Shown: positions 230 through 63,234 of the stretch, in pieces
How the letters are laid out: each line of letters starts with the position of its first letter
Position numbering within the stretch: the stretch's first letter is position 1
Origin: Sphyrna mokarran
Taxonomy: Eukaryota
Assembly (NCBI GenBank): GCA_024679065.1
Contig: JAGIQG010000006.1
Location: 87,296,001-87,360,000 of the forward strand
Length of the DNA stretch: 64,000 nucleotides
Direction: 5' to 3'
Position numbers and translations under genes: made by a program
Notes under the pieces: generated by a model
The model's database searches: none
Told to the model about the DNA's origin: nothing
What the model saw: the letters and a program-made list of their open reading frames with translations, nothing else

Positions 230-296
230 ATGATTCCCTTTCGATTGATTGTATTATTGTTCGCATTATGTTCTCATTCACCCACCGCTGTAACGG
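230..296 (+). CDS. Exon 1, signal peptide [22 protein letters not shown](G)
   Basis: ATG at 230, basic residue then hydrophobic core, phase-1 donor G|GTGAGT at 297. Confidence 0.85.
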
Positions 297-3200
297 GTGA
301 GTAATCTGGCTACTTTTTTTTTAAAAAAGTAAGTAACTTGGGTGGACATACTGAACAAGTGAAAGTGCCAACATAATTAAGGCAAATAATTTTAGTACGT
401 GAACAAAGTGCACGTCTGATGATAAATCTTTTATTGACATGTTAAAAAGGTTTTAGCGCCATAGGATGCTTTGAATGAAATTTCGTGCTTGCATTATCTA
501 GAATAACTTGGTTAATGTATTAATGTTGTTGTTGTTTGATTCAGAAGTTACAATTTTCTAAACTTATAATGCCAGACAGGTGAATATAATTAAAGAAGGG
601 TGTAGATGAAATCTGCACAGATTTCGTTTTTACAGAAACTATGCACTTTGGAACCGGTCTTTATTTTTAAGATCGGGTCCATAAGATGTAGCTTAATCCT
701 TAATAAGCCTGTTCTGCTATTCAGTTGATCATGACTGATTCCTGTCTTGTCTCACAATATGGTCATTTTTGTTTTAAAATTTTAAAAAATAAACCTGCCT
801 TAACTACTATCTTAGTATTTGCTGTAAAAGTACTAAAACTTCTGCCCATTGTGTGTAGGACTGAAATTGGGAAATACTCCTATCAGATTCCCCAACTGGC
901 TACGTTAGCTTTTCTCTATCCACCCTATTAGTTCCTATTGAAAGCTTTAATCAAATCACCCTTTAACCATCTAGATTTGGAGACTACAGTTATAGCTTGC
1001 AGGATTTTAACCTTGGCATCTAGGTATCATTGTAGTAAAAACCATGAAGTATGCCTTCCAAGGCCAATACAGCCATCCTTGGGTTTACTGTGCTGAGTAT
1101 CCTGGTGTGGTCGAACCAGGGCCTTATATATTTGAATCATGGCTTTTCTTTCCTTGTATTCTAGTTCCAGTAGATATAAATATCAGCATTCCATTAGGCT
1201 TTTTGACTACTTATCTTTCTGCAACCCCAAGCCTCTTTAGGCCTCTGACTATTTCTGAAATTTCATCATTGGAAAATGGTGTCCTTTCCATCCTTTTAGC
1301 ACAAAATTAAAACATTTGCTTATTTTAAAAATCCACTTGTCAGAGTTTGCCCATTTATGTAATCAATCGATATCTCCACCGTGACAGTGAGAAATTCAGT
1401 ACACTCTGCACTTGCTCTGCCAAAAGCTGAGCTAAGGATGGTATTGGTTGAGGGAAGAAGAAATTTGGATTAACAAATAGCAATGGCACGTGTATCTTTG
1501 GTAATGATCATTGGAGCAGGTTCTAAACCCTGGTGATGCAATAGTTGGATGCCATTCCTTAATTGCTTTGTCACCTTGATTTCAAAATTTGCAATTGAGA
1601 ACCAAACAAGATGAAAAAATATAATTTCACTTTAGAAAGAAAAAATATGAATAGGCCTTGCATTTTCCTCTGAAGGCAATATAGAAGTAGTGCTGCAAAT
1701 AATCATGGCTGGACATCTTTTTCAGGTGCAAGCACTTGTCAAGCCAATGAAATACATTGTAGCTCTGGATTTTTTCAATGTATTCCTGTCTCTTGGAGAT
1801 GTGATGGAGCACAGGACTGTGATGATGGTAGCGATGAGGAGAACTGCGGTATGTAGCTGGAGGACCACTTGTTCATTCTAACTTAATGGTTCCCAAGACC
1901 TCAGTTGCAACATTTGGGATGATTTGTGACTAGTTTCCCTCTTAAACTTTTTGTTCATTTATTTTGTTCCATATGGCTTTGCAGCAAATGAGCAAAATCA
2001 GCCACAGCTTCCATTACAAGAATGGAGGACAGTGGAAATACTAGGGTCTCGGCGTTCATTCGGAGAAGATGTTAATGTTTTGAGTCCTTTGACTCTACGT
2101 CAGAACTGAAGGAGAACTTTTTTAAAGCTGTAGAAATTGCAAATAGTAACTTCAAAGACAAAAGCCAGGTGCCCTTATGGTGAGGTTTGGGGCAATATAT
2201 GTATGGGATACTTGAAAAAGAAAGGAGGGGGTGGTGTTTAAGTTGCAGGAACAAGGCCAAAATCTAAAGTTGAATTCATACAAGTCAAGTGTTGCAACAT
2301 GCCTAACTGTAAGATATGCTGCCCTTCCAGCTTTCACTGGGGCATTGCATTGACCAAGGATGAGCATGAGAGCAAGATGATTAGACTGTCATTTCTCTGT
2401 CCTTTTGGGATTCCTGTTATGGCATGTATATAGTGTTACTAGATAGTGGACTCCATTTCAAAAGGCAGGTGTCATTCTGACCTTGCATGTGAAGACTTGC
2501 TGCATGCCCAGTAATTGTTTAATCACCAGGCTACAGTCACTGGCCAAGTTTAGGAGGACTGTAAGGTGTTTGACCTTGAGTATCTTTTGAAGTATGGCCC
2601 ATAGTTTAAAGCATGTGAATTGATGTCCTTTTTCTTTCCTTTTAGGCACTGTGACTTGTAATTCATTAGAGTTTACTTGTGCCAGTGGTAGATGCATTTC
2701 CAAAAAATTTTTCTGCAATGGTGCAGATGACTGTGGTGATGGAAGTGATGAAAAGGACTGCAAGTCACGTATCTGTGGCCCTCATGAGTTTCAGTGCAAT
2801 AGTTCTGAATGTATCCCCATGAATTGGCTGTGTGATACTAATGCTGACTGTGCTGATAAGTCTGATGAATCTCCACACCAATGTGGGTATACACTTACAG
2901 TGACCTGTTCTCCTGGTGAGTTTTTATGTAATTCTGGTGAATGCATTCACGGTAACTGGCACTGTGACGGAGATAAAGACTGCCAAGATGGAAGTGATGA
3001 AGACGAATGCTGTAAGTGTATTATTCCTTCTAGTCAAGGATTTACAATGTTTTAATTGGGTTTTTGTCTCCCCTTCCTGATGGTCTAGCAGTGCTAAAAT
3101 TCTTTACTGTCTGGAACCAATAGACTGATCTTGAACTCCTGACATTTTGAATTCTAGAAATGTTAGTATTTGAATGCAATTGACCATGAATGGAGGAATA

Positions 3201-6200
3201 ACTAAGCCGGTGATAAATACAAATTACGTCTCGTGTCATTCCTAAATTAGTATTTGATGCAACTTGCCTCTTTAAAAATATAGTTGCTTTACCTGTCTGT
3301 TGTGGCTGAGTGGACAATTGAGTCAGGAAGTTGAGTTCAAGCCCCTTTCTGAGGGCACTCTACTGTCCTTTTTGGAAGGAATAACCATCAGATCTTTCTG
3401 ATGCCTTGGAAGGATATAAAAGATTCCATGGATGTATCTGGGTAACACACTGTCCCTGTGTCCTGTCACTGTTTATCTACATTCAACAATGGGTATAAAG
3501 TACTTGGACATCCTGAAATCACTATTTTGCCTGAGATTCATTTAAGGAAGAATGGTGCCCATGACATCTGAACTAATTTAATACTACACTACATTTTTGT
3601 TTCTAACCTCCAGGACACTTTGGAGAAAAGTCATTGCAACTCTTAAACTTATTTAAATGTTTTCAGCATTTCTTTCCTGTGATGTCTGACAGTCCAACAT
3701 TTCCAATTGCCAGATTAACAAATGGGTGGGACAGACTATTTAACAAAAATGTCTTCAACTAGGTAATGAGTCTTTCTTTCCAATTGACATAATGTCACAG
3801 GGATGGACATGTTGCCTGACATAACTAGAAACATTCAATGGCATTGCCATTGCCTAATCCCCCATTTTCAACGTCATGGGGGTTATTGACTCGGAACTGA
3901 ACTGTCCTAGTGTGTAAATACTGTAGTGATCAAAGAATAGGAATCCTGTGGCAAGTACTTTGCCACTTAATTCATCAAAACCTTTGCAATATCTACAAAG
4001 CACAAGTCAGGATTGAAGTGGAATACTCTGCTCTTGCCTGGATGGGTGCAACTCCAATAACACAAAGCTTAACACAATCCAAAACAAAGCAACCCTTTTA
4101 ATTGCTACCTTTTCCACAAATATTCATCAGCTGTCTGAGCATCTACACAATGCACTGCAGGAACTTGCCAAGACTCCCTTAGGAAGCATTTGACAAAGCT
4201 GCGATCACTACCATGTAGAAGGACAATAGTAGTAAATATCTGGGAACACTCCCTCCTGAGAGTTCCTTCTTCGTTACACATACCATCCTGACTTAGTGTG
4301 TTTCCTTCTTTGCCACTGGGTCAACATCCTGGAACTCTCCCCTAACAGCGCTATGGATGTACCTACATTGCAGCGATGCAAAAAGGCCACAATCTTTTGA
4401 GGACAACTAAGGATATAATAAATACTGGTCACAAATTAATGAAATAGTGGGGGAGAATCATGAGAAACCTTTAGGGATACATTTTAATTATGGTTTGTGA
4501 CAAATTTATATTAGAAATATTTTGGGATGATTTTTAACATGCTGAATGTTAAAAATAGTGCTAATCTGTTAGCTTACTACATGATTCCTGTTTCTTAATT
4601 GAACTTTTCTTTTCAGCAGCTACTCAAATATGCAAATTTGGTGACTTCAAATGTGGAGATAAATGTATTCCTGAAAGCAAGAGATGCAATGGCTTTGTTG
4701 ATTGTACTGATGGTAGTGATGAGCTCAACTGTAAGAGTAAGTACACACTAGAGTTTAAGAGCATTTTACTGAGCTCCTTTGTTCAAAACTCATTCAACTT
4801 TTCTTTCTACCAGCTCCAGCATGCACAGGGCCTTCTGATTTCCGATGCCAAACTGGAGAATGCATAAATATGAGTCAAGTGTGTGATCGGCGACAAGACT
4901 GCAAAGACTGGAGTGATGAGCCCCTAAAAGAATGTTGTATGTAGCTTTATAGTTCCTCTTCTTCCCCTCAATTCTGCAAACTGAAATAAGGCTGGCAGGC
5001 CTTTAGCCTTTATTAATTTTATTATCTTTAATAGTGAAAAGATTGAATTTTGCTAGTATTAAATGATTTTTTCTAAATAAACATTGTTCTTAGTCACTCC
5101 AAGTATTCCCCCTCCAATGCACCAAGTAATGTTATGATTTGTCCTTGTGCATCAATGTTTAGTTGAATCTAATTAATGTTTTTTTTATTAAATGATATTA
5201 GTTGAATGTGGGCAAATGTGAACTTCACTTGGAACAGAAAGGTTGGAGAATTGAACAAGGATGTGAGACTAGGACAGCAAATTGATGCTGGCCTTTATTG
5301 CAAGGGGAAGGGACTATTGGATTAGGATAGTCTTGCTATAATTGTGGCTTCTGGGGGCAAGGATTATAATTGCACTGAGCAGTTTGGAAAGTTCACCAAC
5401 TTGTTCCTGGAATGGAAGCTTTTCATGTTTGATAAATTGGTTTTATCTGCAGTGGTTTAAAAGAATGATTAATAAGACTTGGCTGGGCAGATACTTTTTC
5501 TCTATCAGGCTAGAAGAAAACTTCCCATCTCAAGATGGGACTCCTTTGAGCATCATTCATCTTTCTCCCTGTAGAGGTAGGGTCATCAAATATTTAAGGC
5601 TGTTTAAATTATTGACAGGAGTCAAAGTGGGTAGTGTTGAGGCTATGACCTGATCATCCATGATCTTATTAAATGGCAGAGCAGGCTTGAGAGGCTGAAA
5701 GAGCTAACCTTGTTGCTGATTTGTACATGTAGATATGTCAAAGTTTCTAATATTAGTAGATCATACACTGCAGCAAGAAGTGCTGGAGCCTGATTCATTA
5801 CCTTAAAGCAACCCAAAAGCCAAAAATTATCTCTTAGAACTGTGCCTTGGTCACCTGTTTGCCATAGCTAAAGTACTCCTCAACAAAACACCAAGTGATC
5901 CAGGGTGAATAGAGACAACAGCAACAAAGAACATCAGTGCTACCTTCTTTTGAGGTTGCACAAGTAAAGATGGTCTTGGATCTTTTGAAAAAGATTCTAC
6001 AGAGCTTAAAGTGTGGCAGGGCAGCAGAATATGATTTCATACCAGAATTTATGAAACACTTGGGGCCCTGAGAATTTTGTCTAGCTGACCTGGTTTTGTA
6101 CAATGGCTGTGAATGCCAAAACAATAACAAATGGTAGCACTCTGCTAGCTGTCAGTTGTGATCTTGACCAAATGAGAACAGTATTGTGTGACTAAGTGAA

Positions 6201-9200
6201 AAGGTTTGAGTGATTGGTAGCAACATCTTGGATTGGGCCTAAGTAGCTTGGCAATATACTTGTTTCTGGGCTTGACCTTGGCTCCAACTGTTTGGGGTGT
6301 AAAGGCCATAACATGGAAAAGAGCTCATACCTGTAGTTAATGACTGTCCAATCTTGCCTGTCAGTTCCACTATAAAATTCTTGGACGAATTCTCCTTCAG
6401 CAGATAGCCCTCAATCCTTCATTAGTCAAGCTGGTTTTTGCTAGCACTATAGCATGGAACAGGTATGTTGAAATCAGCTTTCAAAAAAAACTCAGGCAGA
6501 TGTTGTTTGTGAACCTTGCAGCAGCCTATAACACCCTATGGTGTGCAGCTACTTGGGCAAACAACATTGGAGTACTGTTGAACAGAAGTTCAGAGTTCAC
6601 TTTAGCCATAAAGGCAAACCAAGGCTGTGGTGCTCCAACCTTGTTCAACTTGCACACCAATGATCTTCCAGAAACTATCTCCCAAATTTCAATATGCCAA
6701 CAACATAGTTCTCAACTGAACCTCTGACTGGATCTTAAATGAGGACTTGTCAATATTTGAACAATACTGCAACACACTTACTCAAAGTAAACTCTCCATT
6801 TTCACAAGGCAAAAGGCAATGCTGCTCAACATTTAAATGGCTGCAAGTTAATGTGATTCTAGATAGGTGTTCCTGGAAGATTAGTGTCCTAAACAGTTGC
6901 AGCCATGATCAACTACTCTGGGGTATTGTGATCACCACTCCAAACCTCAGCACTTAAACTCCATGGTTAGTAGTAAAATACTGTGCCCTTTTTGGTCAAA
7001 ATCATCTCACAATTAACACATCAAGCTAAATGCTGCCATGCATATCGTTACAAGAACACCCATATGGAGGGGGGGGGGTGGGTGGTGGGAAGAGCCATCT
7101 CTAAACATGATTTTAGTGTATAGTCCATCTCAATAAATGAATTGAATATGATGACCAAGTACTTTGGTCTTAAACTCATTTCAACCTGACAAGGAAAATG
7201 TGGTCTGTTCTCAGATTCAGGAACAGCCACAGACCCTCCTTGGTGAACCCCCCAGAGGAAGCATTACAGCTAGCCTCTTCTAAGGGAGGGAGCAAGCTAC
7301 GCACCACCACCAGTGTCTAACCTACAGATTCCAAAGAGGCCTATCCAAACTTAATACAGTAGGACTGGAAGAAACTGTTTGCTTGAGGAATTTGCATTCA
7401 CTAAACAAACTAATTGATTTATACTGTTAATTTTACACTGCTTATGGCAGAATTACATTTAATAGCCTTTGATTCTTCAAATAGGAAAGAACATTCTGAT
7501 TTTGTTTTGCAGATATAAATGAGTGCCTGGTGAACAATGGTGGTTGTTCTCATATCTGCAGGGATCTTGCCATTGGTTATGAATGTGATTGTCCACCTGG
7601 CTTTGAACTGGTGGGCAAGAAATCCTGTGCAGGCAAGTTCAATTCCATTAACTTTCTCATTGATCCAGATCATGAATTTGAAAGGATGTTTCTTCTTTGC
7701 AGATATTGATGAATGTCAAAATCCAGAAACCTGTAGTCAAATTTGCATCAATTTAAATGGAGGTTATCAATGCAACTGTCATAAAGGATATCACATTGAT
7801 CCGATCAATGGGGGTTGCAAGGCTGTTGGCAAGTACAATATTTGAAAATATTCCATTAAGTCTGCTGTGAAACAATGTTATGCAACAATATGCAGGTATT
7901 TAACAGCAAAATAAATTTTGTGCTTAAGAACTGAAGGTAAATAGCTATACCCTAAACTGTAATACAAAGCTGAAGTAGATGTTTGCATCTCTACCAACAT
8001 GACAAGGCTGGGTTAAGTATCATTACCTATGTAAAATCATCTGGGTTGACACTGGAAAGGAGTGTTTTCAGTCCACTGTTTGAACTGCATTTGTTGCTCT
8101 TAGAACAATACAGCACAGAACAGGCCCTTCGGCCTTCGATGTTGTGCCGACCAAAATAAAAAGCAATGCCCCTCCTAACTAAACCATTCCCTTCTCATCC
8201 ATATACTTATCCACTAACCTCTTAAACGCCACCAAACTTGGCTCATCTACAACAGCTGCAGGCAGGGCATTCCACTCCCTAATCACTCTTTGAGTAAGAA
8301 CCTACCTCTGATATCCGTCCTATAACTCATACCCCTTAATTTAAAGCTGTGTCCCCTCGTGCTAGCTTTCTCCATCCTAGGAAAATGGCTATCACTGTCC
8401 ACCCTATCTAAACCTCTAATCATCTTATATGCTTCAATAAGATCCCCTCTTAGCCGCCTCCTTTCTAACGAAAACAACCTCAAATCCTTCAACCTCTCTT
8501 CCTAGGACCTGCCCTCCATACCAGGCAACATCCTAGTACACCTCCTCTGTACCCTCTCCAATGCCTCCACATCTTTCTTATAATGTGGGGACCAGAACTG
8601 CACACAATACTCCAAGTGCGGACGCACTAGAGTTTTGTACAGTTGCAACATGATGCTGCGGCTCCTAAATTCAATCCCCCTACCAATAAAAGCTAAGACT
8701 CCATATGCCTTCTTAACAACTTTATCCATTGACTGCCTACTTTCAGTGATCTATTGACACATACACCAAGATCCTTCTGTTCCTCAACACTATTAAGAGC
8801 CCTACCATTAGCCCTATACTCTACACATTTATTGTTCCTGCCAAAGTGCATTACCTCACACTGTTCCACATTAAACTCCATTTGCCACCTCTCGGCCCAG
8901 CTCTGCAACTTGTCCAAGGCACTCTGTAAACTAAAACACCCCTCTTCACTATCTACCACACCACCAACTTTAGTATCATCTGCAAATTTACTGATCCATC
9001 CCTCAATACCCTCATCCAGATCATTTCTAAAAATTACAAACAGCAGGGGCCCCAAAACAGACCCCTGAGGCACACCACTCGTCACCGAACTCCACGATGA
9101 ATATCTCCCATCAACCACCACCCTCTGTCTTCTATCTGCCAGCCAATTCCTAATCCAATTAGCTAAATCACCCTCTATTCCACACATCTGCACTTTCTGT

Positions 9201-12200
9201 AGAAGTCTTCCATGGGCCACCTTATCAAACGCCTTACTAAAGTCCATATATACTACATCAACCGCCTTACCCCCATCCATCTCTCTGGTCATTTTCTCAA
9301 AAAACTCAATGAGGTTAGTAAGGCATGAACTACCCTTCACGAAACCATGCTGACTATCCCCAATCAATTCATTTCTCTCTAAATAACTATAAATCCTATC
9401 CCTAATAATTCTCTCCAATACCTTGCCCACAACAGAAGTAAGACTCACTGGCCTATAATTCCCTGGAAGGTCTCTCTTCCCCTTCTTAACCAATGGGACC
9501 ACATTCGCTATCCTCCAGTCCTCCGGAACCACACCCGTAACCAACGACGACCTGAAGATCAGAGCCAGAGCTCTGCAATCGCCTCTCTTGCCTCCCAGAG
9601 AATCCTAGGGTAAATCCCGTCCGGCCCAGGGGACTTATCCAACTTCAAACCCTCGAGAATTTCGAACACATCCTCCCTATCTACTACAATACTCCCCAAT
9701 TTGCAACCCTGTACCTCAGTGCTCTCCACAGCTACATTTCCAGCACTCTGCGTGAATACCGAAGAGAAATATTTATTCAGTGCCTCACCAATCTCTTCAA
9801 GCTCCACGCACAACTTCCCACTGCTGTCTATGACTGGCCCTAATCTTGCCCTAACCAATCTTCTATTCTTAACATATCGAAAGAAAGCTTTAGGATTCGC
9901 CTTAATCCTATCAGCCAACATCTTCTCGTGTCCCCTCTTAGCTCTCCTCAATTCACTTTTTACCTCCTTCCTAGCTAATCTATAGCTATCCATTGCACTC
10001 CCTGAGCCTTCAAGCCTCATCCTGACATAAGCCTCCTTTTTCTTCTTAACCAGCACATCAACTCTTTTCGTACACCAAGGCTCTCTTACTCGTCCATTTC
10101 CTCCCTGCCTGACAGGGACATACTTATCAAGGACTCTCAGCAGCTGCTCCTTGAATAAGCACCACATTCCAGATGTTCCCAGTCCATGTAGTTCCCTAGT
10201 CCAATCTACGCACCCTAATTCTCTCCTGATGGCCTCATAATTACCCTTCCCCCAGCTATAACTACAGCCCCCAGCTTCATGCCTATCCCTGTCTAGTGAT
10301 GGGCTACCTAGGTTGATTGGGGCTGCATGAGTGGCTCTCCTTCATCTCTGGGCTGCAAGCTGACTTGGTCACTAATTATGATGACTCCAAGAATATGATT
10401 GATTACATTTGATATGTATCAACTCCAAATGGCTAAATAATTGTGCACAATGCAGAGGAACTCTACACCTATAGAGTAATCAGCATGCATCTTACTTCAC
10501 TTGCCTTTGCTTTATGTATCAATTCAGTCATACCAGCAGGGGAAAGAACTGGGTGGTCAGAATAGGACAGCCTGGTACCTGGGACAGTGGCCAACATCAT
10601 GGGCCATATTCAGAACCCAGATGAGTTTTGTGGGGGTGGGTGTACAAAGGTTAGAATATTCAATGTCTTGCAGAAAACCTGTTTATTATTGCCATACCTA
10701 ATAAACTATTGGAGACAAATCATCAACCTCAATTGTTTTGTAAGTTTGCTGCCCTCAGAGGGGTATTTTGAGAAAGGGGACATTCCACAAGGGATCTTAT
10801 TCTCAGCAGGCATGATTGGCCAGATGGTTATCTTCTGTACTGTATGATTGCAAGGAAATCATTGTTCATGTGTTGGTTTTCCTCCTACAGGAGAAGAGCC
10901 CTGTTTAATTTTCACTAATCGTCATGACATCAGGAAAATTGGATTGCATCACATGGAATACACTCAGATAATTGATCAGCTGAGAAATGCTATAGCACTT
11001 GATGCTGACATTGCAGCGCAGAAAATCTTCTGGGCTGACCTGGGACATCATGCAATTTTTAGGTAAGATTTCTGAAATTCCATTATGTAACTGAGAATTT
11101 TCAGTTCAAGATCTGTCTTTCTACATTGAGACACATGAATAAATGCTGATCAACTAACACTGGCTTTGCCTCTCCTGAATTGAATTCTTCTAGATTGTGG
11201 CCCTGCCTGGATATAGAACTCAGTAAGAAGTCTCAACAGATGAGTCAAACTGGTTTAATTGGTAGCAAAAAGCACTTGCTGCCAAATAAAACTGTTGGAC
11301 TTTAACCTGGTGTTGAAAGACTTCTTACTGTGTTTACCCCAGTCCAATGTCAGCATCTGTCATGGTTGTAGAACTTCCAGGAATTGGTATTCTAATTGAA
11401 CTAGAAAAAGTTCAGTCACACGTAGACTTGGATTAATCCTACAATGAAGTTACTGAAAATCCTAGTAGCCATGCTCCAGCACCTAATTGGGGTATACTGA
11501 AGGAGAATTTAGCATGGCCAATGCATCTATCCAAGCCCTTCTGAGGAAGTGGGTGGTAGAGAAAGAAAGCACCTGTTGGAAGCCCATGCAGATTCTGACC
11601 CAAGATAGGAATGGGATCTGCAGTGCTGCCAACTGGCCACTGTGTGCCTGATTTGTTACTCAAGTAGTCCTGAGGTGGCTTGACTCTAGCCCAGGTTAAA
11701 AGCCTGCCACTCTTCCAACCTGATTTTGGATGGGAGAATGTCTTTTTGCTCAAAGACATGGTATAAAGTAAAATTTATATGGTAATTGATTTATGGTGCA
11801 ACATTAAGATCTGAGATTGATAGAGCCCAAGAAGCAATTCATTCAGCCACCATTCAATATGCAGAAGGTGATAGTGATTCAAAGAATGAGGTCTCCATTT
11901 TTTAACTTGGAAGTGAAAATAGACTGAAGGCTTTAAAGCTTGTAGAGTCACAAACTGAAATCATTAACTTCTTTTGAACTAGATGCAGGGCAAATTAATT
12001 TAAAATTGCTCCTGTGATGAAAATGCCAAGTGCAATACAACGAGAATTAGAATTTGAATTTCTTAAATTAAGGTTTAAGAACTGATGCATGGAGAATCTT
12101 GATGCTATTTGCTCCAGAGCTTCCTTTGCAAACTGTAAATGAGTCCAAAACCATGTGACTGAATTGTCAAAAGCCTTGTTTAAAGTTTATTTTCATCATG

Positions 12201-54200: not shown

Positions 54201-57200
54201 AGGAGAGGAGCCATATCTGATCTTCACTAATCGCCATGATATCAGAGAACTGGGATTACACCATAAAGTATACAGTCAGGTAGTTGCAGAATTGAGAAAT
54301 GCTGTGGCACTGGATACTGATGTGGCAGAGAAGACCATCTTCTGGGCTGACTTGGGACAGCAGGCAATTTTCAGGTAATATGTTGCACCTCACAACTGAC
54401 CTTATCCAAAACTGCACTCGTTAGCTTAAGTAACCAATTTGGACAAATTTTCTGATGTGCTTCCACCTTTGAACATTTTGTGGCTGAATAGTTTTTGTGA
54501 TGGCTTTGATTTTATTTCATAGTCATTGCATATACTTGACAGATCTACGTGACAGCAATAATCATTCATGCAATTACCTTGTCGAATTAATTTGAACTTC
54601 TTCAAATCATGATTGTTACTTAGTGATCCAGAAAACTATTTAATGACTTAATGTTGATGTGCTAAACTTTGTAATTAGCCTACCTTTTTGCAACTCCCAA
54701 GTAGATGATTTGCTGGTGTTTCAGATGTCCAATATCATCTCTCAAGTTGCATAGTGACTTGAGAGCAACCAGTAAATGGTTGTAATAATACAATATATTG
54801 TGCATTTGAGACACAACTTTTGCATGCAAGATTTAACGGTTTTAATTTGTTTGCTTTAACTTTTTTCTGCAGTATGCTGATGGATGGCAGCACTGGCATT
54901 TCCAGGATTGTTAACAATGTACGAATTCATGTGGGAATTGCTGTTGACTGGATCTACAACAATATTTACTGGACTGATATGGGTGCTAGAACCATATCTG
55001 TTGCAAGCTTTAATGGAATCAGAAGGAAAACACTCTTTGACAGCAACTTGAGAGAGCCAGCTTCTATAGCAGTTGATCCACTATTGGGGTATGAACTTTG
55101 TCTTCAATGTACCATTGGGTATTGATGCTTGATTCACTCTTGCTGGCATTAGTATTTTGTGACTGTTTGGATGATCAAGTAGTCAACCAGATTATCTGGT
55201 AACTACAGATGAGAGCAATGATTTGTCATTACAGCATGACAATCACAGACCATTTTTGCCTTTCCTTGTCTTAGGTTGGAGTTGTCTAACAGCAATCTCA
55301 TTTTTCACTCTACATTTTTCTTTAAATATTTGACCAGTTCCAGTTTGCCTCAACAGCCACTTATTGTCCTAACTCCCTGAATGAATTTGGTTCTATCCTG
55401 CTGTTCCCCCTCAATTTGGTCTTACAGAATCACTAATCCAAAGTTTCTAAACACTTGCATTTCCCTTCTTTAAATTCAATTTTTAAAGATTTAGCCTTCA
55501 GCTAAGTCAATGTATACAATTTTTTATGCATGTTTCATGCTTCTAATCATTCCTATATCTAGCCCAAACCTGGATACAATAATACTGGCCCTAACTGATC
55601 CATAATATGCTGTTTCACCATCTTGAATATAGATTATATATTGGAGGCAATTTTTAATGGATGCTAAATTCACACTGCACAAGGAATAGATTAAGGCTAA
55701 CATTTCATGGATCACTAGAAAGGCTGTTTGCATATCCAAGATTAGGAACAGTTTAACTAACAATTTAGTAAGTTATGCATGTTGAGTACTGATTCCTACC
55801 ATTGTCTTTTGCAGCAAAATTCTTTAAAATCACATCTAGTTTAAACTTTTTTCCCTTTTTGAAGGCTTTGGTATATTGCTGAACAGTGCTACGCACTGAT
55901 GTAATTTGACTGACAGCATTGGCTGAAATTGGGCCATTCAGGGTAAAGGGATCTTCTGGTCCTGCAAGCAGCACACCTTGTTACAAGTTTCTTGGTGGCA
56001 GTGCATTCAACAGGACACAAGATCAGAAGCTTTTACTAGCCAGTGATAGGTTATCTCTACTTTGTGGTACGTGGAAAAGCCCACCCATTCTTTTCAAAAA
56101 TGCTGACAACTTGTAGTTAAATTTTAAAATATTTTGCTGGAAAAAGTGTTTTTAATTGGTTTGCATAAGCTAATGAAATGCCATGTTTGTTTGGAGAGCA
56201 GTAATTGGATATTTTGCAAATTCAAAAGGTATTGGAGTCTTCAATGATACTTGTGTCCTTGTCTCTCAAAGAACCAGTTTCTTTTCTAAGTCTCTCCCAA
56301 TCCTGCAAACCAGTGCAGCTAGTAGTGACTTGCAATGGTGGTAATCATCCTGGGGTCAGAATCTGATTTTTAGAAAGATCTACCCTTAGTTTATGTCTAG
56401 GCTATATGTGTAGAATCACTTTGCAAAACAAACTATACGTGTACCCAATATTACAACTCTACTTAGTATTACAAATTTATCATTGTTAGATTTGCATAGA
56501 AAAACAACTGAAATGTCACTGAAGTTGAGCTGGAATTTAAGAAGCAAAAATGCAATTAAATATGCCCCTGTTCTTGCTTACCACTGCCACACTCCTCACT
56601 AGCCCCCTGCTGCCAATGAATCAGCTCCCTTGAGTCAAATTTGGCATGCTTGAAATTGTCCTCGTTTTCTAATTATCTATCACTGTGTGGGCAAACTCTA
56701 GTTGTGGGTTCATGTTGCATTTGTGTTGACTTGGTTGCATCACCCACTGCTGTTTTATAAAAATTCATTTGGTTCACTTTTTCAAGCATGTCTGCCATTT
56801 TTCCTCTGGCCTGGTTCATGTTACTCCAGATCCACTGTAGCATGGTTGAATCCTGACTGCTTGAGGATAGGTAACAAATGTTGATATTGTCATTGACTCT
56901 GTCCCATGACTAATGGCCCACTACACCTGAAATTACAGATATGCTAGGAAAAATCTTCAAATATGGAAGTGCAGTTTGATTTTCAACCTTGTAGTAATCA
57001 CAGCCATCCCTAGGGTGATGTATGGCAGTAGTCAAGCACTGCTACCTTACAGTACCAGGCATCCAAGTTTAATTCCTGGCTTGGTTATCAATGTGGAGTT
57101 TGTACATTGTTCCCCTCCTAATTTCTGCATAAATTTCCTGTAGGTGCTTGGGTTCCCTCCCACAATCTGAAAGAGATGTTGGTTGGGGGCATTGACTCAA

Positions 57201-60200
57201 AAGGCATTGGAGTGTGGTGACTAAGGGAATTTCACTAACTACATTGCAATGTTAATGTAAGCCTTTAATATAGTAACTTCAGATGGTAGGAAGCAAAATT
57301 AGATGTGCTACCATTTTTAACAGCAATTTAATAAAATTAGCCTTCTGGGGAAAAGACCATAATAAACAACCTGGATGTCTAGACAGAAAAGCAGTGTACT
57401 TATTGCATTTGTTACTGAAGCTTCAGGGACAGTTCAGATTTGATCAAAAAGAATTCAATCTTTTTTATTTAAAGGTATATTTATTGGTCAGACTGGGGTG
57501 AACCTGCAGTGATTGAAAAAGCAGGAATGAATGGTGTTGGTCGCAAGCTCCTGGTTACCAGAGATATTGAATGGCCAAATGCCATTGCACTTGGTGAGTA
57601 GAGCTGTATAAAAGTAGACTGTTTGTTTTTGGTCTTTTGACAAGCATGACTCATTTTGGTTCAATTATCCCATAGATCTTGTGAAAAACTGTCTTTATTG
57701 GGTTGACTCTAAGCTGCATACACTGTCAAGTGTGGACACAACTGGACAGAATAGAAGAACTGTGCTTTCCTCACATGAATTCCTTGCTCATCCTTTTGGC
57801 ATATCCTTATTTGAGGTAAAGTTCATTATGAAAAAGTGTAGCAAAGTTGAAATAATTGACAGATTTTTGAGCTCCAGAGCTTGTATTGGTTATATCTTAT
57901 CTGTTCCTCATATCCATATGAATGGTCAAATTTAAGCTGGCTTATGCAGCATAAGGCAAAATGGTGTGCTGCAAGTGCACTGCTGGAAATAGCAATCTGG
58001 CAGAATATTTGGAGAGGGGGAATCTGAAAAGTTATGGCCTGTACAAATTCTACTTTTTTTAGGTGAGGTGGGCACATTTTGATTTGTCATGTTTATGGGA
58101 TGTGGTTGTGACTGATAAGGCCAACAGGTTGCCCATTGATATCCTTGAGTCAGTTGTATTGCTGTGGGTTATGGAGTAAGTCTATCAAATAAGGATGGCT
58201 GGTTTGCTTCCCTAAAAGGGATGGTAAAGCCTACTTATCTCAAGAGTTGTTGCCGAACATGTCACTTCCAGCATTATGTTGAATTTTTCTGCTTTCAATA
58301 ATGGAAGATCGTTGCGGACAAATGGTCTACATGGATTGGCAGAATGGAACATTATAAAGTCAAAACTCCATTGCTGACACAAATTTGTAATTGCCCATAC
58401 AGCAATTGTATCAGAACCCAGTTACAGTACAAAGCATGTGAAGTTGTTTGCACCCACTGGAGAGTGGATTTGTGGTGAATATTGACTTGTCTTTATGACC
58501 TTTGGAAGTGGTCTCATTTCAGGATCATGTCTTCTGGACTGACTGGAAATATAATACAATCTATCAAGCTAATAAATACACAGGAGGGGATTTGAAGATT
58601 TTACTCTCCCATCTTAAGGAAGCTCGGGACATCATTGTTTCTCATGAGCTTGTACAGCCGTCAGGTAAGAATTCTTATCAATTAGCAAACCTTTGTTTCT
58701 AAACACATTTCCCATTGGCCATTCACCTGATTCTATGGATCAATCACTTTTTACATCTAAATAAAACCAGCTGTTTTTTCAATTCCATGTTTACCTTATC
58801 AAAATTGGACTTCTGAATTATGAATTCAGTTCATGCTTTCAAATGCTGTAAGAACATTGTATTTCAGAACAATTTGGATGTTCACCATGCCTATAACACA
58901 TCTGAAATAGCTGTTTTTAAAATTAGAATGGGGCTTACTTAATTTTGGGTTATCCTGTCCCACTTCAACTACTGATCATGCCATTTGATCTTTCAACAAG
59001 ATCTGTTTGGATTGTGGTTTCCTTCCAAAACTTACCCATGTTAAACAAACATTAAGGGTATATTGTAATTGGTAGAATTTGCTGGTCTTGTCTGGCAGAA
59101 CCTGTTGTGAGTGAGAATAGAGAACTTGGGCTTCGCAGCCAAAACGCCATTAACCTTCTGGGTTGTTTGGTATTAATCAGTTGTTTACCCATACTAAATT
59201 GTCACTCAAACATTCATTTTAAACAAATTTCCAATGTCATGAGTTGCGTTTTATGGTCAATCTTGTAATATACAAATGATCAGTTAAAACTTGACCCATG
59301 AAGCAAGTGGTTATTTCTGCTGGTTTAAGTTTGCAATTTTAGTCACCAGTATTTGTAGACTTACAACACTTGTTCACAAATGTTTTGAAATGCTTTGAGG
59401 TAATTGCAGTTGTATTGGAGCAGAATTTTAACGTTCAAAATGTTTCCAAGAACCATTCAAATCTTGCGATACTAAAGCCAAATGTACTCATCAAAAGATA
59501 AATTGGGTTGGTTTTAACTGGGTGCACAAAAATTGATGAAGGTAGCTTGGTTTAAACTATACATTGAGAACCAATGTGCTTTGTTAGGTGTGAGATTTGG
59601 TTTTGCTTGTTATCACATTGCTCTGAACATGCAATGAGCAGGCAAATGAATAATCTTGCTGGGTTTGGGGCTGTTGGCTACAAGGTGAGATCTAGTCTGC
59701 TTTGAACTATGATGCATGAGAAGAATACTGGCCTCTTGATAGACTTTTTTGTAAATCTGTTTGCAGGCAAAGACTGGTGCAATGAGAATCTGAAGAATGG
59801 AGGATGTAAATATATGTGCCTTCCAGCTCCTCAGATCAACAGTTACACTCCAAAATACACCTGTGTATGTCCATCTGGAATGGAGTTGCAAAAGGATGGA
59901 CAACATTGTAAAGCAGGTAAGCACTGCATATGCTGGAAATAAGTACAAGTGCTGGGGGTCAGCTAGCATTGATGGGAGAGTTGCCTTTCTAATCAACTTG
60001 TAACATTAGCACGCTCAGCCCACTACAGTTCCAGCCTCAACACATGCAAATGCATGTGCAGCACAGTGTTTGGTATGTTTCACTTCTGCTGATCTAATAT
60101 TTTAATATCAGCAGTAATCTACCTACTTGTGGAGGAGTTTTTGGAATCTGGATTTTGTGCTCCACAGAAGGAATGCATGTTAACAAAATGGCAGACAATT

Positions 60201-63200
60201 GTAGTTGCCTTCATTCTGTTGTGCTGTTTTGCAATTATTGATCAACTTGGATACTAAAACTGGTGAATAAGATTTTCCTTGACAGTAGGTGTAATATACT
60301 TGGATTCTCAAAAGGCCTTCACTAAAATTCTGCATAAAAATAGGCATATGCAGACCTTGTTAAAGAGCAGATAGCAAGCTGGTTATAAATGGCAATTACT
60401 CTGGCAGGAGAGTGTTCCCAAGAGATTGGTGCTGGACCATTACTGATTATTTACAGACTGACTAATTTTCACTTTATAGATCATCCAATTGTGGCTGGGA
60501 TGAGGAAGACTGACACAACAATGGACATAATCAAGTAGCTTCAATTTGGCAACAGTATATTTTGTAGATATTACATGCACAATTGTGCATAATTCTGGTC
60601 TCAAAGCACTAAATTCCAAGTATGGTAGACATTAACTGTAGTTCTATCTGGAATGATTGAACAGTTTGGCAACCAGTTGTACCTATCTGGAAGGGAACAA
60701 AGGATGACTTGGAGGCAGTACTTTATCCCACAAACTAGATCATGAATAAGATAGTAAAATGGGAATTAAAGGGAAGATTTACTAAGAAATAGCTTGGAGG
60801 AATTTTTAAGGGAAGCAAGTAGATGGGAAGACATTGTGGAGCATGAATACATTTTGAGCTGAAATAACCTGTCTTTGTGCTGTAAATCCTACATTCAGTC
60901 ATAGCTTTCCTCATTTTCCCTCGGCAAATTCCCAATCATTGGCTGTCTGGTTCTGGCATTAATTTGATTTGGTTCTGATTTTTGTCACTTCCAGGTGTTG
61001 GCTTTTCTTCCTGACGGCACTGTCACCTGCAGCCCATTACTAATCCACTGGTGACACTGTTCTGGCATTGGATTTATTTGCACATGTCCTGATCTTTTAT
61101 CTCTGCCCTTCCCTGTCACTCATTCCACCTGATGCTTCATTAAATCTGTCTCAAAATCCTGTTGCATCTTGAGCTTCTGATCTCATTTTCCTTTCTCCCA
61201 CCTGAGGACATATGCTTGTTACAAGCCCATCTAATTATGTGGAGACTAGGAAGCGGCAGGAAACTTCCTGTTTTGAGCTTGGGTGTATTGATAAGATTCA
61301 CTTTGCATTTTTTAAAAAAAAGTTAGTGTGCCGTTAGTGAGGCATCATTGTATGCCATTACTTTAGGCATGTCTGTCATTGTTTAGATGAGGAATTTTTA
61401 ACCTAATGTATCTTTGAACTTGTAAGATCTGTTTAAAACAGATGCAATATTTTTAAGGCATGTTCAGTTTTGTATAAATCAGTACATTCTGATTCATACT
61501 TTAGCACATATACCAATAGAAAATCTTGTGTTTTATTCATGTGCTGCAAATCTGGATTATTTTAAATTGGACACTATATTTCAACTGCATCTTGGAGTGT
61601 ATCAAAGTTGTTTTAAATGTAAATGTTCCAGAACATTAGTCAAAAACAGGAACCCCTTGTATTCAAAAACCTATACAAGATTTGAGTTTTGCTTCACCTT
61701 TTTTATAGCAGCAGGATGAGCTGGAGAGGATCACTGGACCAAACGTGATCTGAAAGCCAGGGGTAGGCTGGCTTCAGAAACAATTTGTTCATTGCCTAGT
61801 CCTTAACAGGAATTGGGGATACTTGGCTAATACAAAAATGACCTCTACTTGATCAGTAGCTGGCATTTCAAATAATCCTCAATGACAAATTGAATGCTAT
61901 TTATTTTTAATTTTGTACAATCTTCTACAGCTTAATGCATTGCAACCTTTTTGACTTTGTATAAACTGGACAAAGGGTAAAGTTCATGATTGTAAACAGA
62001 TTTTATTTCAGTTGAATGTATCTGTATGCAACGTCTTTGTGGATGAGAACTGTCCAATTACTCAATAACGTGCTTTCCACTGTTTTAATTTCTGATTTGT
62101 GCACACTTTTCTATCTACCACTAGTAAAAACTACATGTGGAATGATGGAGTACAAGTGTAATGATGGACAATGTATACCTAAGAGATGGCAATGTGATGG
62201 CCAAGCTGACTGCCATGATGGTTCAGATGAAAGTGAAGAAGTTTGCTGTAAGTGCTTGTTCTTGGATCAGTTTCTTGCCTACTGTAAGAACCAAATGGTA
62301 GATTGGCTGTTTGTATATCTAATACTTTGGAGTCTGCATGGATTTGTGAGCTCCATTTCCATGTGCTTTCTGAACAACATTCCTTGGTGTCTTTCCTCTT
62401 TCTATCCCCCTGCCTCTTAACATTAGCCATGCTTGCCTTCGCCCTTTTTGTGCTTCCTCCCCTTCCTTATCTGCAACCAATTAACAGCCATATCTTTAGT
62501 CAGCTGGCTGAATTTATTTCAATTCCTTTAAGACCCAATCAACCAAGGTTGATTTACTGACCTAAAATTGTCTCTGGCTCTTGGATAATGTTCTATATAA
62601 TGCTAGTATCTGTAACAAACTTTGCACCTGTAACTGAAACCACAATCTGGTTTTCACAACTAGTGGAAAAATTTCATTTTGCAGACTGCTTGTTTCCTCC
62701 ATAACAGGAGGGACATTGGGGAAGAGGGGGCACAGTACAGTGTTTGAATACATAAGGAGCTTTCACTTGATATAATGCAATTTAGAGAATGTGAACAAAA
62801 TTTAGGAGGGGTAGAAGGAAGGAGAGGTCTGGCATCAGCCCAAATGTTTCCTAAACCTGGCTTGGTCATCTACCTCCTGCAGAAACTGACAGCAAAGGAC
62901 TAAAGTACTTAACTGGGGTTTGAGGAATAAATGGGGGGGGGAAATAGATGTGAAATTCAAAGCTTTTACAGTACTTTAAAAGATGGACAGCATTCTATTT
63001 AAGAACAATATTTGGTGTAAACTTTCTATAATTGGTTATCATTATTGAATCAACCCCATCTTAACAGGCAAAGAAAGCTGACCACTTTAACAGAAACTTT
63101 GCTTATTTCAGACCTGAGAAGCTGTCCCATTGAAGAAATTAAATGTGGCTCTGGATCTCATCAGTGTATTCCAGCTTCTTGGAAGTGCAATGGAATACAG

Positions 63201-63234
63201 GACTGTGATAATGGTGCTGATGAAGAAGACTGTA
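230..63234 (+). CDS. VLDLR-like: Spliced gene, open at the 3' end: giant VLDLR-derived LDL-receptor-family protein with at least 4.2 tandem ectodomain modules (53 exons, about 2740 aa in window)
   Basis: Hand-traced exons with AG/GT (three GC) boundaries and matching phases. Peptides closely match VLDLR ([84 protein letters not shown]). Propeller exon sizes 172, 213-225, 119, 140 and 142 nt recur in every module. Confidence 0.9.
900..1380 (-). mobile_element. Highly decayed CR1 LINE fragment
   Basis: Patchy similarity to the 3' ORF2 region of the CR1 copies in this window (e.g. ggtgtggtcgaaccagggccttatata); limits approximate. Confidence 0.5.
1726..1848 (+). CDS. Module 1, LDLRA (VLDLR LA3-like)
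   Basis: ttttcag|; [41 protein letters not shown]; |gtatgt; 123 nt, phase 1-1. Confidence 0.93.
2646..3011 (+). CDS. Module 1, triple LDLRA exon (LA4-6)
   Basis: tttag|; [16 protein letters not shown]...[11 protein letters not shown]; |gtaagt; 366 nt. Confidence 0.95.
3800..4445 (+). mobile_element. Decayed non-LTR retrotransposon 3' portion (CR1/L2-group, distinct from the FADD-type CR1 copies)
   Basis: Relic peptide [22 protein letters not shown] resembles the post-RT region of this group; ends near aataaatactgg. Confidence 0.6.
4617..4736 (+). CDS. Module 1, LDLRA (LA7)
   Basis: tttcag|cag NAGNAG acceptor; [39 protein letters not shown]; |gtaagt. Confidence 0.9.
4814..4936 (+). CDS. Module 1, LDLRA (LA8)
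   Basis: ccag|; [40 protein letters not shown]; |gtatgt. Confidence 0.92.
5230..5715 (+). mobile_element. Decayed CR1 3' end
   Basis: Relics ggcctttattgcaagggg and gatcttattaaatggcagagcaggcttgagaggctgaa; limits approximate. Confidence 0.5.
5900..7400 (+). mobile_element. Decayed Ingi/Vingi-like non-LTR retrotransposon RT region
   Basis: Ordered relic motifs [57 protein letters not shown]...KLNAAMHIV; many frameshifts. Confidence 0.55.
7513..7632 (+). CDS. Module 1, EGF-A
   Basis: [39 protein letters not shown]; donor G|GCAAGT (GC-AG intron). Confidence 0.92.
7703..7828 (+). CDS. Module 1, EGF-B
   Basis: [42 protein letters not shown]; donor G|GCAAGT. Confidence 0.92.
8101..10293 (-). mobile_element. 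5'-truncated CR1 LINE (ORF2 RT, frameshifted)
   Basis: ORF pieces 9559-10167, 8693-9544, 8502-8729 and 8283-8492 carry [44 protein letters not shown] and RPHLEYC; CR1-type 3' end at about 8101. Confidence 0.95.
10891..11062 (+). CDS. Module 1, propeller exon 1
   Basis: [21 protein letters not shown]...[11 protein letters not shown]; 172 nt, phase 1-2. Confidence 0.93.
11222..11364. repeat. Short palindromic repeat relic (Penelope-like)
   Basis: Inverted arms agtaagaagtct / agacttcttact and tttaattggtagca / tgctgccaaataaa; related pieces at about 43127-43190 and 52400-52522. Confidence 0.55.
11420..11648 (-). mobile_element. Decayed tRNA-derived SINE
   Basis: Shares caatgaagttactg and ggagaatttagcatggccaatgca with the copy at 37345-37605. 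Confidence 0.6.
12876..13100 (+). CDS. Module 1, propeller exon 2
   Basis: KSIDNQSG...[17 protein letters not shown]...[14 protein letters not shown]; 225 nt, phase 2-2. Confidence 0.93.
13416..14465 (-). mobile_element. CR1 LINE fragment, related to the 8101-10293 copy but more deleted
   Basis: [19 protein letters not shown]...[12 protein letters not shown]; CR1 3' end at about 13416. Confidence 0.9.
14628..14746 (+). CDS. Module 1, propeller exon 3
   Basis: AAG acceptor; [24 protein letters not shown]...WPNGITL; 119 nt. Confidence 0.93.
14825..14964 (+). CDS. Module 1, propeller exon 4
   Basis: [28 protein letters not shown]...SIFE; 140 nt. Confidence 0.93.
15657..15798 (+). CDS. Module 1, propeller exon 5
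   Basis: [21 protein letters not shown]...TQPS; 142 nt. Confidence 0.93.
15915..16185 (-). mobile_element. Decayed V-domain SINE
   Basis: Reverse complement of a tRNA head (ggaattgaactcagg; actactgtgcca) and central aacctg...gggaggaaaccc. Confidence 0.6.
16515..16658 (+). CDS. Module 1, EGF-C
   Basis: [21 protein letters not shown]...CVCPAG...RCT; 144 nt, phase 1-1. Confidence 0.92.
17870..17995 (+). CDS. Module 2, LDLRA (LA2-like)
   Basis: aacag|; [41 protein letters not shown]; |gtaagt. Confidence 0.88.
18688..19022 (+). mobile_element. tRNA-derived V-domain SINE with CR1-like tail (HE1-like)
   Basis: A box tagcacagtgg, B box gagtttgattcc, core aaagatgtgcaggttaggttgattggccatgctaaa, tail gatgggctgaaatggcctc...ttctatgatttctat. 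Confidence 0.75.
20371..20490 (+). CDS. Module 2, LDLRA (LA3)
   Basis: [39 protein letters not shown]; 120 nt. Confidence 0.92.
20755..22599 (-). mobile_element. 5'-truncated CR1 LINE, second subfamily, CpG-retaining
   Basis: ORFs 21322-22218 and 20840-21400 with [29 protein letters not shown] and RPHLEYC; 3' tail at about 20755. Confidence 0.95.
22762..23124 (+). CDS. Module 2, triple LDLRA exon (LA4-6)
   Basis: [15 protein letters not shown]...[11 protein letters not shown]; 363 nt. Confidence 0.95.
23772..24052 (-). mobile_element. CR1 3'-end fragment
   Basis: catagatacagtatggaaacagccc...ccttaaacctatgccctc pattern matches the 3' ends of the other CR1 copies. Confidence 0.65.
24228..25750 (-). 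mobile_element. Decayed CR1 LINE
   Basis: Relic [26 protein letters not shown]...[17 protein letters not shown] at 25128-25385. Confidence 0.8.
26340..26785 (+). mobile_element. Highly decayed CR1 3' end
   Basis: gggcataggtttaagg and ggcatggacaagttgg relics; limits approximate. Confidence 0.45.
26822..26947 (+). CDS. Module 2, LDLRA (LA7)
   Basis: [41 protein letters not shown]; 126 nt. Confidence 0.92.
27019..27135 (+). CDS. Module 2, LDLRA (LA8)
   Basis: [39 protein letters not shown]; 117 nt. Confidence 0.92.
28744..28863 (+). CDS. Module 2, EGF-A
   Basis: [40 protein letters not shown]; 120 nt. Confidence 0.93.
29553..29681 (+). CDS. Module 2, EGF-B
   Basis: [43 protein letters not shown]; 129 nt. 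Confidence 0.92.
30306..30477 (+). CDS. Module 2, propeller exon 1
   Basis: [24 protein letters not shown]...[11 protein letters not shown]; 172 nt. Confidence 0.93.
30796..31008 (+). CDS. Module 2, propeller exon 2
   Basis: MFMYERK...[17 protein letters not shown]...[14 protein letters not shown]; 213 nt. Confidence 0.93.
32181..32299 (+). CDS. Module 2, propeller exon 3
   Basis: [20 protein letters not shown]...SPKGIAL; 119 nt. Confidence 0.93.
32375..32514 (+). CDS. Module 2, propeller exon 4
   Basis: [28 protein letters not shown]...SVFE; 140 nt. Confidence 0.93.
33629..33770 (+). CDS. Module 2, propeller exon 5
   Basis: [21 protein letters not shown]...MQPS; 142 nt. Confidence 0.93.
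34117..34257 (+). CDS. Module 2, EGF-C
   Basis: [23 protein letters not shown]...CVCPSG...HCEL; 141 nt. Confidence 0.92.
35348..35467 (+). pseudogene. Module 3, dead LDLRA (LA2-like) pseudoexon
   Basis: Homologous to 44272-44394 but acceptor AG>AA, donor GT>CT, TGG>TAG stop at 35407-35409, first Cys lost and one codon deleted. Confidence 0.88.
36070..36192 (+). CDS. Module 3, LDLRA (LA3)
   Basis: [40 protein letters not shown]; 123 nt. Confidence 0.93.
36758..37129 (+). CDS. Module 3, triple LDLRA exon (LA4-6)
   Basis: [16 protein letters not shown]...[11 protein letters not shown]; 372 nt. Confidence 0.95.
37345..37605 (-). mobile_element. tRNA-derived V-domain SINE
   Basis: gtcacaagtaggct...cattaacactgcaatgaagtt...gggaggaaactggagcac...gctgtgaggcagcagtgttaaccactg. 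Confidence 0.75.
37845..37967 (+). CDS. Module 3, LDLRA (LA7)
   Basis: [40 protein letters not shown]; 123 nt. Confidence 0.92.
38050..38166 (+). CDS. Module 3, LDLRA (LA8)
   Basis: [39 protein letters not shown]; 117 nt. Confidence 0.9.
39250..39456 (-). mobile_element. Decayed SINE, same family as 37345-37605
   Basis: caatgaagttgtgaaa...gtgacccaagctgggaattgaac...gcagcaatgctagctactgtgc. Confidence 0.65.
39988..40104 (+). CDS. Module 3, EGF-A
   Basis: [38 protein letters not shown]; 117 nt. Confidence 0.93.
40178..40303 (+). CDS. Module 3, EGF-B
   Basis: [42 protein letters not shown]; 126 nt. Confidence 0.93.
40536..40600 (-). mobile_element. Very short CR1 3'-terminal insertion
   Basis: agaacaacacagcacgagaaaacgggcccttcggccca matches the CR1 3' ends at 8101 and 20755. 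Confidence 0.6.
40751..40922 (+). CDS. Module 3, propeller exon 1
   Basis: [24 protein letters not shown]...[11 protein letters not shown]; 172 nt. Confidence 0.93.
41212..41436 (+). CDS. Module 3, propeller exon 2
   Basis: MSLNKW...[17 protein letters not shown]...[14 protein letters not shown]; 225 nt. Confidence 0.93.
41891..42009 (+). CDS. Module 3, propeller exon 3
   Basis: [20 protein letters not shown]...WPSGIAL; 119 nt. Confidence 0.93.
42086..42225 (+). CDS. Module 3, propeller exon 4
   Basis: [28 protein letters not shown]...SIFQ; 140 nt. Confidence 0.93.
42761..42902 (+). CDS. Module 3, propeller exon 5
   Basis: [21 protein letters not shown]...IQPS; 142 nt. Confidence 0.93.
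43645..43791 (+). CDS. Module 3, EGF-C
   Basis: [23 protein letters not shown]...CLCPPG...YCMA; 147 nt. Confidence 0.92.
44272..44394 (+). CDS. Module 4, LDLRA (LA2)
   Basis: [40 protein letters not shown]; 123 nt. Confidence 0.92.
44814..44936 (+). CDS. Module 4, LDLRA (LA3)
   Basis: [40 protein letters not shown]; 123 nt. Confidence 0.93.
45940..46990 (-). mobile_element. Decayed non-LTR retrotransposon RT region (probably the family of 3800-4445)
   Basis: Patchy LINE-like sequence (ttgccactgatcagcccaagcctgaa; ggaactcctgcagtga); no intact ORF; limits approximate. Confidence 0.45.
48655..49020 (+). CDS. Module 4, triple LDLRA exon (LA4-6)
   Basis: [16 protein letters not shown]...[11 protein letters not shown]; 366 nt. 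Confidence 0.95.
49993..50115 (+). CDS. Module 4, LDLRA (LA7)
   Basis: [40 protein letters not shown]; 123 nt. Confidence 0.92.
50204..50323 (+). CDS. Module 4, LDLRA (LA8)
   Basis: cag|tag NAGNAG acceptor; [39 protein letters not shown]. Confidence 0.9.
51485..51601 (+). CDS. Module 4, EGF-A
   Basis: [38 protein letters not shown]; 117 nt. Confidence 0.93.
51684..51809 (+). CDS. Module 4, EGF-B
   Basis: [42 protein letters not shown]; donor G|GCAAGT. Confidence 0.92.
52386..52536. mobile_element. 123-nt Penelope-like insertion flanked by a 14-bp direct repeat
   Basis: cattctgcatagtg at 52386-52399 and 52523-52536; the insert resembles the reverse complement of 11222-11364. Confidence 0.65.
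54203..54374 (+). CDS. Module 4, propeller exon 1
   Basis: [24 protein letters not shown]...[11 protein letters not shown]; 172 nt. Confidence 0.93.
54873..55088 (+). CDS. Module 4, propeller exon 2
   Basis: MLMDGSTG...[17 protein letters not shown]...[14 protein letters not shown]; 216 nt. Confidence 0.93.
57012..57270 (+). mobile_element. Decayed SINE, same family as 37345-37605, opposite strand
   Basis: agcactgctaccttacag...attcctggcttgg...tccctcccacaatctgaaaga...cattgcaatgttaatgtaagcct. Confidence 0.65.
57475..57593 (+). CDS. Module 4, propeller exon 3
   Basis: [20 protein letters not shown]...WPNAIAL; 119 nt. Confidence 0.93.
57676..57815 (+). CDS. Module 4, propeller exon 4
   Basis: [28 protein letters not shown]...SLFE; 140 nt. 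Confidence 0.93.
58523..58664 (+). CDS. Module 4, propeller exon 5
   Basis: [21 protein letters not shown]...VQPS; 142 nt. Confidence 0.93.
59767..59916 (+). CDS. Module 4, EGF-C
   Basis: [23 protein letters not shown]...CVCPSG...HCKA; 150 nt. Confidence 0.93.
62125..62247 (+). CDS. Module 5, LDLRA (LA2)
   Basis: [40 protein letters not shown]; 123 nt. Confidence 0.92.
63112..63234 (+). CDS. Module 5, LDLRA (LA3); gene continues beyond the window
   Basis: [40 protein letters not shown]; |gtaagt; 123 nt. Confidence 0.92.

Follow-up and report, generated by a model that had tools for sequence, protein, structure and literature searches.

What kind of receptor is encoded where VLDLR-type exons recur several times along one strand of a hammerhead contig, and is the repetition genuine? 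The window analysed here is a 64,000-nt stretch of the Sphyrna mokarran genome (contig JAGIQG010000006.1, positions 87,296,001-87,360,000), in which an earlier note had described a giant receptor with one signal exon and five consecutive modules, unfinished at the window edge. To obtain the exon map, a six-frame motif scan was combined with tblastn on the + strand, and splice sites were picked from candidate AG and GT/GC dinucleotides in the expected phase. Past the window end, positions are given in extended numbering, which carries the window numbering on into the 200 kb downstream. All module coordinates proposed in the note proved to be exact exon boundaries (Table 1).

Table 1. Features of the five-module gene, in window numbering or, where marked, in extended numbering.
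Feature	Position	Strand	Remark
Signal exon (exon 1: start codon and signal peptide)	230..296	+	N-terminus near-identical to Scyliorhinus canicula c3 P0365
Module 1, 12 exons: LA3, LA4-6, LA7, LA8, EGF-A, EGF-B, five propeller exons, EGF-C	1726..16658	+	6 LDLRA, without LA1 and LA2; GC donors after 7632 and 7828
Module 2, 13 exons: LA2-LA8 (7 LDLRA), EGF-A, EGF-B, propeller, EGF-C	17870..34257	+	
Module 3 LA2 pseudo-exon	35348..35467	+	
Module 3, 12 exons: LA3-LA8 (6 LDLRA), EGF-A, EGF-B, propeller, EGF-C	36070..43791	+	
Module 4, 13 exons: LA2-LA8 (7 LDLRA), EGF-A, EGF-B, propeller, EGF-C	44272..59916	+	GC donor after 51809 (EGF-B)
Module 5, first two exons (in window): LA2 62125-62247, LA3 63112-63234	62125..63234	+	
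Module 5 remainder	extended 66874-76977	+	past window end
Thr/Ser-rich stalk exon	extended 78673-78747	+	
Juxtamembrane exon	extended 78982-79062	+	
Last exon: transmembrane helix end, FENPVF, three more residues, stop	extended 79265-79371	+	
AATAAA	extended 79385	+	directly behind last exon

Within the window, the signal exon and 51 further exons (52 exons, 8,221 nt) join into 2,740 codons without a stop, with 28 LDLRA repeats (6+7+6+7+2) and four complete propellers, exactly as the note had counted. All 51 acceptors are AG, and donors are GT at 49 of 52 sites and GC at the remaining three. Intron phases repeat identically from module to module, another point on which the note was correct, and all LA and EGF exons are of phase 1-1. 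The downstream sequence, where the note had suggested looking for further modules and for transmembrane and NPxY exons, contains the remainder of module 5, a transmembrane exon and a tail that reads NPxF, not NPxY. The whole gene comprises 67 exons encoding 3,429 aa with no internal stop and exactly five modules, and ends at extended 79,371, 15 kb past the window. The intact frame is that of a type I membrane protein, with 33 LDLRA repeats (6-7-6-7-7 by cluster), five propellers, one transmembrane helix and a short tail. The acidic calcium motif is present in 33/33 LDLRA repeats, and the domain folds have already been solved for relatives. A fused gene of eight modules was ruled out, given the transmembrane exon, stop and AATAAA after module 5 and the signal exon of the next gene at 107,945. 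Four introns of the gene are of the GC-AG type, those in Table 1 and one with its donor after extended 70677, each following an EGF-A or EGF-B exon; GC donors occur at similar places in the c2 gene described below.

The model is 83.3% identical (2,787/3,345 aligned residues), end to end, to Scyliorhinus torazame VLDLRc3 (BDQ29913.1) vs 62.8% to the named VLDLRc2, and 91.4% and 76.1% identical, respectively, to a 3,484-aa protein of Mustelus asterias and a 3,489-aa protein of the whale shark. By these alignments the gene is identified as the shark orthologue of VLDLRc3, already described in 2023, and the present finding adds one species. It resembles the catshark gene in having five units beside c2 and c1, modules orthologous one-to-one and a FENPxF tail, and differs from it in the loss of LA2 from module 3, an Arg at the His586 equivalent of propeller 3 and the inclusion of LA8 in module 1, a repeat missing from the deposited catshark protein.

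A literature search for VLDLRc3 found Ohishi et al. 2023 (PMC10015161) alone. According to its text, cartilaginous fishes have three tandem VLDLR genes, c2 with three and c3 with five extracellular units, in agreement with the chondrichthyan VLDLR duplicates mentioned in the note. The architecture was thus on record, as were the tandem origin, the synteny and the ovary expression, c2 and c3 being reported there as expressed in the ovary only in the cloudy catshark. The same text states that c2 and c3 were not recovered from transcriptomes of two viviparous sharks, for which the tissues listed do not include ovary. The words 'NPxY', 'cytoplasmic' and 'internalization' do not occur in its main text, where no description was found of the absence of LA1, the NPxF tail, the positional orthology of modules or the loss of LA2 from module 3; the figures may show domain details.

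The three genes form an array on one strand within 250 kb, c3 with five modules, c2 with three and c1 with one, each with its own signal exon and tail. The c2 gene (signal exon at extended 107,945, intact LA1 at 109,757, FENPVF tail) is 85.2% identical to the named c2, and the c1 gene (eight repeats, FDNPVY, signal exon at extended 233,887, tail at 248,374) is 92.8% identical to catshark c1. A 499-codon frame with BTB and ion-transport domains, closest to Kv2.1 among solved structures, follows c1, and an exon for a SnAC domain lies 48 kb upstream of c3, the genome's other SnAC match adjoining an LDLR-like locus on C938. From human synteny we take these neighbours to be KCNV2-like and SMARCA2-like, and the order of the locus, which the note had suggested checking, would fit SMARCA2-VLDLR-KCNV2. 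A search of the 2.77-Gb genome with one propeller exon gave 13 matches, nine of them on the window's contig. Further VLDLR modules were absent both from the 80 kb upstream and from another 80 kb that begins where the 200 kb of downstream sequence ends. The roughly 80 kb separating the c2 tail from the c1 signal exon (extended 152,900-233,800) showed repeat-like frames only and no VLDLR-like exon.

For the phylogenies, rows were hand-picked from about 370 retrieved proteins, with most bony-vertebrate VLDLRs, isoforms and short fragments left out. A careful tree of 26 rows covered the propeller-EGF-C region together with four LRP1/LRP2 propellers, a quick tree of 82 rows included all 32 LRP1/LRP2 propellers, and a FastTree of 74 rows spanned LA3 to EGF-C. 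All eight c3 and c2 modules group with VLDLR (support 97/96 in the 26-row tree and 94 in the 82-row tree), apart from the LDLR-like and LRP8-like loci of this genome and split from LRP1/LRP2 at a support of 100; this is the placement that the note had expected of a module phylogeny. In the 26-row tree, every c3 module has the catshark module of the same number as its partner (100/99-100). The c2 and c3 modules are joined (97) as sister to c1 (98) in the 82-row tree, a sister relation that the 26-row tree leaves undecided. In the FastTree, eight positional classes (c2 modules 1-3 and c3 modules 1-5) are recovered at 100 each, with batoid members in the c2 classes and a skate model in those of c3 modules 3-5. 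Therefore, the multiplication predates the split of sharks and batoids, and the modules have not been homogenised since. Branching among the module classes is weakly supported (89 or less) and changes from tree to tree. Counts in other species, another check proposed in the note, gave the same five modules in the same order in shark c3 proteins.

An expansion from three to five modules within sharks, first hinted at by batoid and chimaera proteins of about 2,150 aa, was considered and rejected. The skate model of 2,154 aa has no signal peptide and falls with c3 modules 3, 4 and 5, so that it looks like a split model, and the stingray, sawfish and electric-ray proteins of this length are c2 in the FastTree. 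In Callorhinchus milii, the modules of the multi-module VLDLRs P0243, P0005 and P0047 show no positional correspondence to elasmobranch c2 or c3 modules in the FastTree, and some of them come together weakly (83); holocephalan modules may have multiplied separately or been homogenised.

That the array was created by the assembly, or that the gene derives from LRP1 or LRP2, might be suspected from databases, in which orthologues carry automatic LRP1-like or LRP2-like labels or are broken up into several models. Chance was set aside by the strand bias of the LDLRA-type motif, with 27 occurrences on the + strand against one on the - strand. Between modules, protein identity is 62-68%, and no unique intron sequence is shared. 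Among the 77 DNA self-matches in the window, 73 overlap exons and four are intron-only, at 68-76% identity and at or beside old LINE-like pieces. Divergence of this degree, with intron-only matches so few and so old, argues against false duplication by assembly. Independent assemblies carry the identical five-module order, the propellers group with VLDLR and not with LRP1/LRP2, and the positional orthology of modules across species refutes both versions of this reading, whose probability we regard as negligible. Decayed LINE-like reverse-transcriptase pieces were seen on the - strand at 8100-10341, 13416-14465 and 20764-22599, in introns of modules 1 and 2, and account for the long intron-only self-matches. 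Tandem Repeats Finder returned two trivial arrays from the window and nothing else.

The note had proposed at least five copies of the entire VLDLR ectodomain, built from exons 3-15 independently of LRP1/LRP2. The source and the number, now exactly five, were upheld, and the extent of the unit requires correction. For all single-repeat exons (18/18), the highest-scoring exon in this genome's canonical VLDLR is the one with the same number, so the repeated unit runs from LA2 to EGF-C (VLDLR exons 3-15), and LA1 and the O-linked stalk are not part of it. No LA1 exon or remnant was found across the five-module gene, and LA1 is kept in c2 module 1 and in c1. Module 3 has six repeats because its LA2 exon is dead, a detail missed in the note. 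This pseudo-exon bears five lesions (acceptor, donor and first cysteine gone, a codon missing, a stop in frame), a number that makes sequencing error improbable. The c3 proteins of catshark, whale shark, bamboo shark and sevengill have this repeat in full, the Mustelus model has it in a form already shortened, and its loss in Sphyrna mokarran is read from this comparison as lineage-specific. In LA2 of module 2 (17870-17995), Leu replaces the ligand-contact Trp and Asn the first Asp, and this repeat may be weakened in binding.

These features separate the gene from its closest relatives. Canonical VLDLR (LR8, the vitellogenin receptor, VLDLRc1) is the exon-for-exon source of the modules, with the same phases and propeller regions 67-70% identical, but has a single unit, LA1-LA8, FDNPVY followed by a longer tail, and broad expression; neither its one cluster of eight LDLRA repeats including LA1 nor its FDNPVY is found in c3. 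VLDLRc2 shares the LA2-EGF-C unit and the NPxF tail, and its modules lie with those of c3 on one side of a supported branch, whereas it has three units, all eight repeats including LA1 in module 1 and, in sharks, a somewhat longer tail. LRP1 and LRP2 (megalin) are of the same size class and multi-cluster design and are probably comparable as multivalent endocytic receptors. However, each has eight propellers, set in runs of several among clusters of unequal size and 25-38% identical to the VLDLR propeller, whereas c3 consists of five near-equal units with one propeller each.

The c3 tail reads FENPVF, followed by three residues and the stop. Twenty-two proteins of c2/c3 type were hand-picked from sharks, batoids and a chimaera; 21 end in FENPxF and the other is a truncated model. 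FDNPVY is present in 82 of the first 123 proteins retrieved. A scan for NPxY gave no match at the c3 or c2 tail, both of which read NPxF. In Table I of PMC2133019, LDLR with FDNPVF has an internalization index of 0.95 vs 1.0 for FDNPVY, a value measured on a motif from which c3 differs in reading FENPVF and in placing it three residues from the C-terminus. By analogy with this LDLR variant, endocytosis is probably kept in c3 despite NPxF. A non-standard motif of the fly yolk receptor is reported to be read by a different adaptor (PMC3338440), and a literature search found no report of Dab1 binding to NPxF. In the propellers, all five modules retain the equivalents of LDLR Lys560 and His562, and four retain that of His586; K560, H562 and H586 are thought to drive acid-dependent release in LDLR (PMC5452030). 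The exception is module 3, with Arg where catshark and Mustelus have His. A few modules of other species likewise carry Arg or another residue there, so His at this position is not a strict requirement.

We assign a probability of about 0.7 to the reading, drawn from sequence and the published ovary expression, that VLDLRc3 acts as a multivalent endocytic receptor on growing oocytes for yolk precursors, with NPxF-dependent clathrin uptake and release at low pH. A tandem duplication of VLDLR would have come first, after which, still before the shark-batoid split, the stretch from LA2 to EGF-C (exons 3-15) would have multiplied to five copies. Each LA cluster would bind basic patches of vitellogenin or of a yolk lipoprotein at the oocyte surface, and five clusters would provide avidity or allow several cargo molecules per receptor. 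The NPxF signal would then bring the receptor-cargo complex into clathrin-coated pits, and at endosomal pH each propeller would fold back onto its own LA cluster and release the cargo. Simultaneous binding of several vitellogenins is also what Ohishi et al. propose, with binding tests deferred, in the text of PMC10015161.

The main rival reading concerns the cargo. In a fish receptor, vitellogenin binding reportedly requires the first three repeats (PMC11772764, citing Li et al. 2003). With LA1 absent throughout c3, and LA2 missing from modules 1 and 3, the canonical vitellogenin site is incomplete in all c3 modules. The same gene might accordingly have ceased to bind vitellogenin in the manner of VLDLR and instead serve as a megalin-like scavenger of VLDL lipids, carrier proteins or maternal immunoglobulin, with ligands specific to each module and vitellogenin left to c1 and c2, in which LA1 is retained. 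That each module keeps its positional identity from sharks to a skate, with no homogenisation, would suit such a division of labour, but positional orthology is also expected from age alone. The shared acidic ligand motif in every one of the 33 repeats means that other repeats may substitute, and the loss of LA2 from module 3 kept the frame, which suggests redundancy. On balance a change of cargo appears rather unlikely. Less likely still is that shorter spliced or shed forms predominate over the receptor of some 3,400 residues. Given that every module boundary is in phase 1, whole modules could be skipped in frame; the phase 1-1 LA and EGF exons, the catshark c3 deposited without module 1 LA8 and the split models in several databases point the same way. 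Nevertheless, five modules are served by one signal exon and one tail, and full-length products of 3,423-3,491 aa are on record for five shark species. According to PMC10015161, sequencing of RT-PCR cDNA preceded deposition of the catshark VLDLR sequences, and the catshark c3 protein presumably came from one continuous cDNA. The published c3 reverse primer matches the last exon of the hammerhead gene with 3 mismatches (0/200 shuffles); for the forward primer, a search of the window allowing up to 3 mismatches found nothing. We consider a predominance of short forms very improbable.

A bolder reading can be put forward tentatively. VLDLRc3 might, instead of repeating one vitellogenin site five times, be a specialist for uptake only, a second and independently built megalin with module-specific yolk cargo and an adaptor preference of its own. 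This suggestion draws on the dropping of LA1, the replacement of the tyrosine motif by a terminal NPxF and the positional distinctness of the modules since before the shark-batoid split. In the paralogue ApoER2, LA1 is the main reelin-binding repeat (PMC6213145), and the terminal NPxF is common to c3 and c2 from chimaeras to sharks. If true, an uptake-only, megalin-like c3 would help to explain the very large eggs of cartilaginous fishes. Whichever version holds, a full exon model is provided for a gene that is mislabelled or split in databases, and the loss of LA1, the NPxF tail, the positional orthology and the repeat loss sharpen the question of which ligands the three shark VLDLRs bind and bear on whether multiplication of the ectodomain supports the yolk loading of giant oocytes.

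Further VLDLR-related sequences were encountered during the searches. A 239-nt intronless segment with stops (L024:4799-5036 in G000:C113, near 89,875,400 on the - strand) is 83% identical to the c1 coding sequence and, spanning the junction of propeller exons 4 and 5, is taken to be a decayed VLDLR retrocopy fragment. A further VLDLR-like propeller locus lies at L023:3805-5102 (G000:C838). Five shark proteins of 650-710 aa (P0087, P0101, P0102, P0105 and P0118) have three LDLRA repeats only and no NPxY; this three-repeat receptor forms a long branch of unsure placement, near or in the VLDLR group, and is possibly Lrp13-related.
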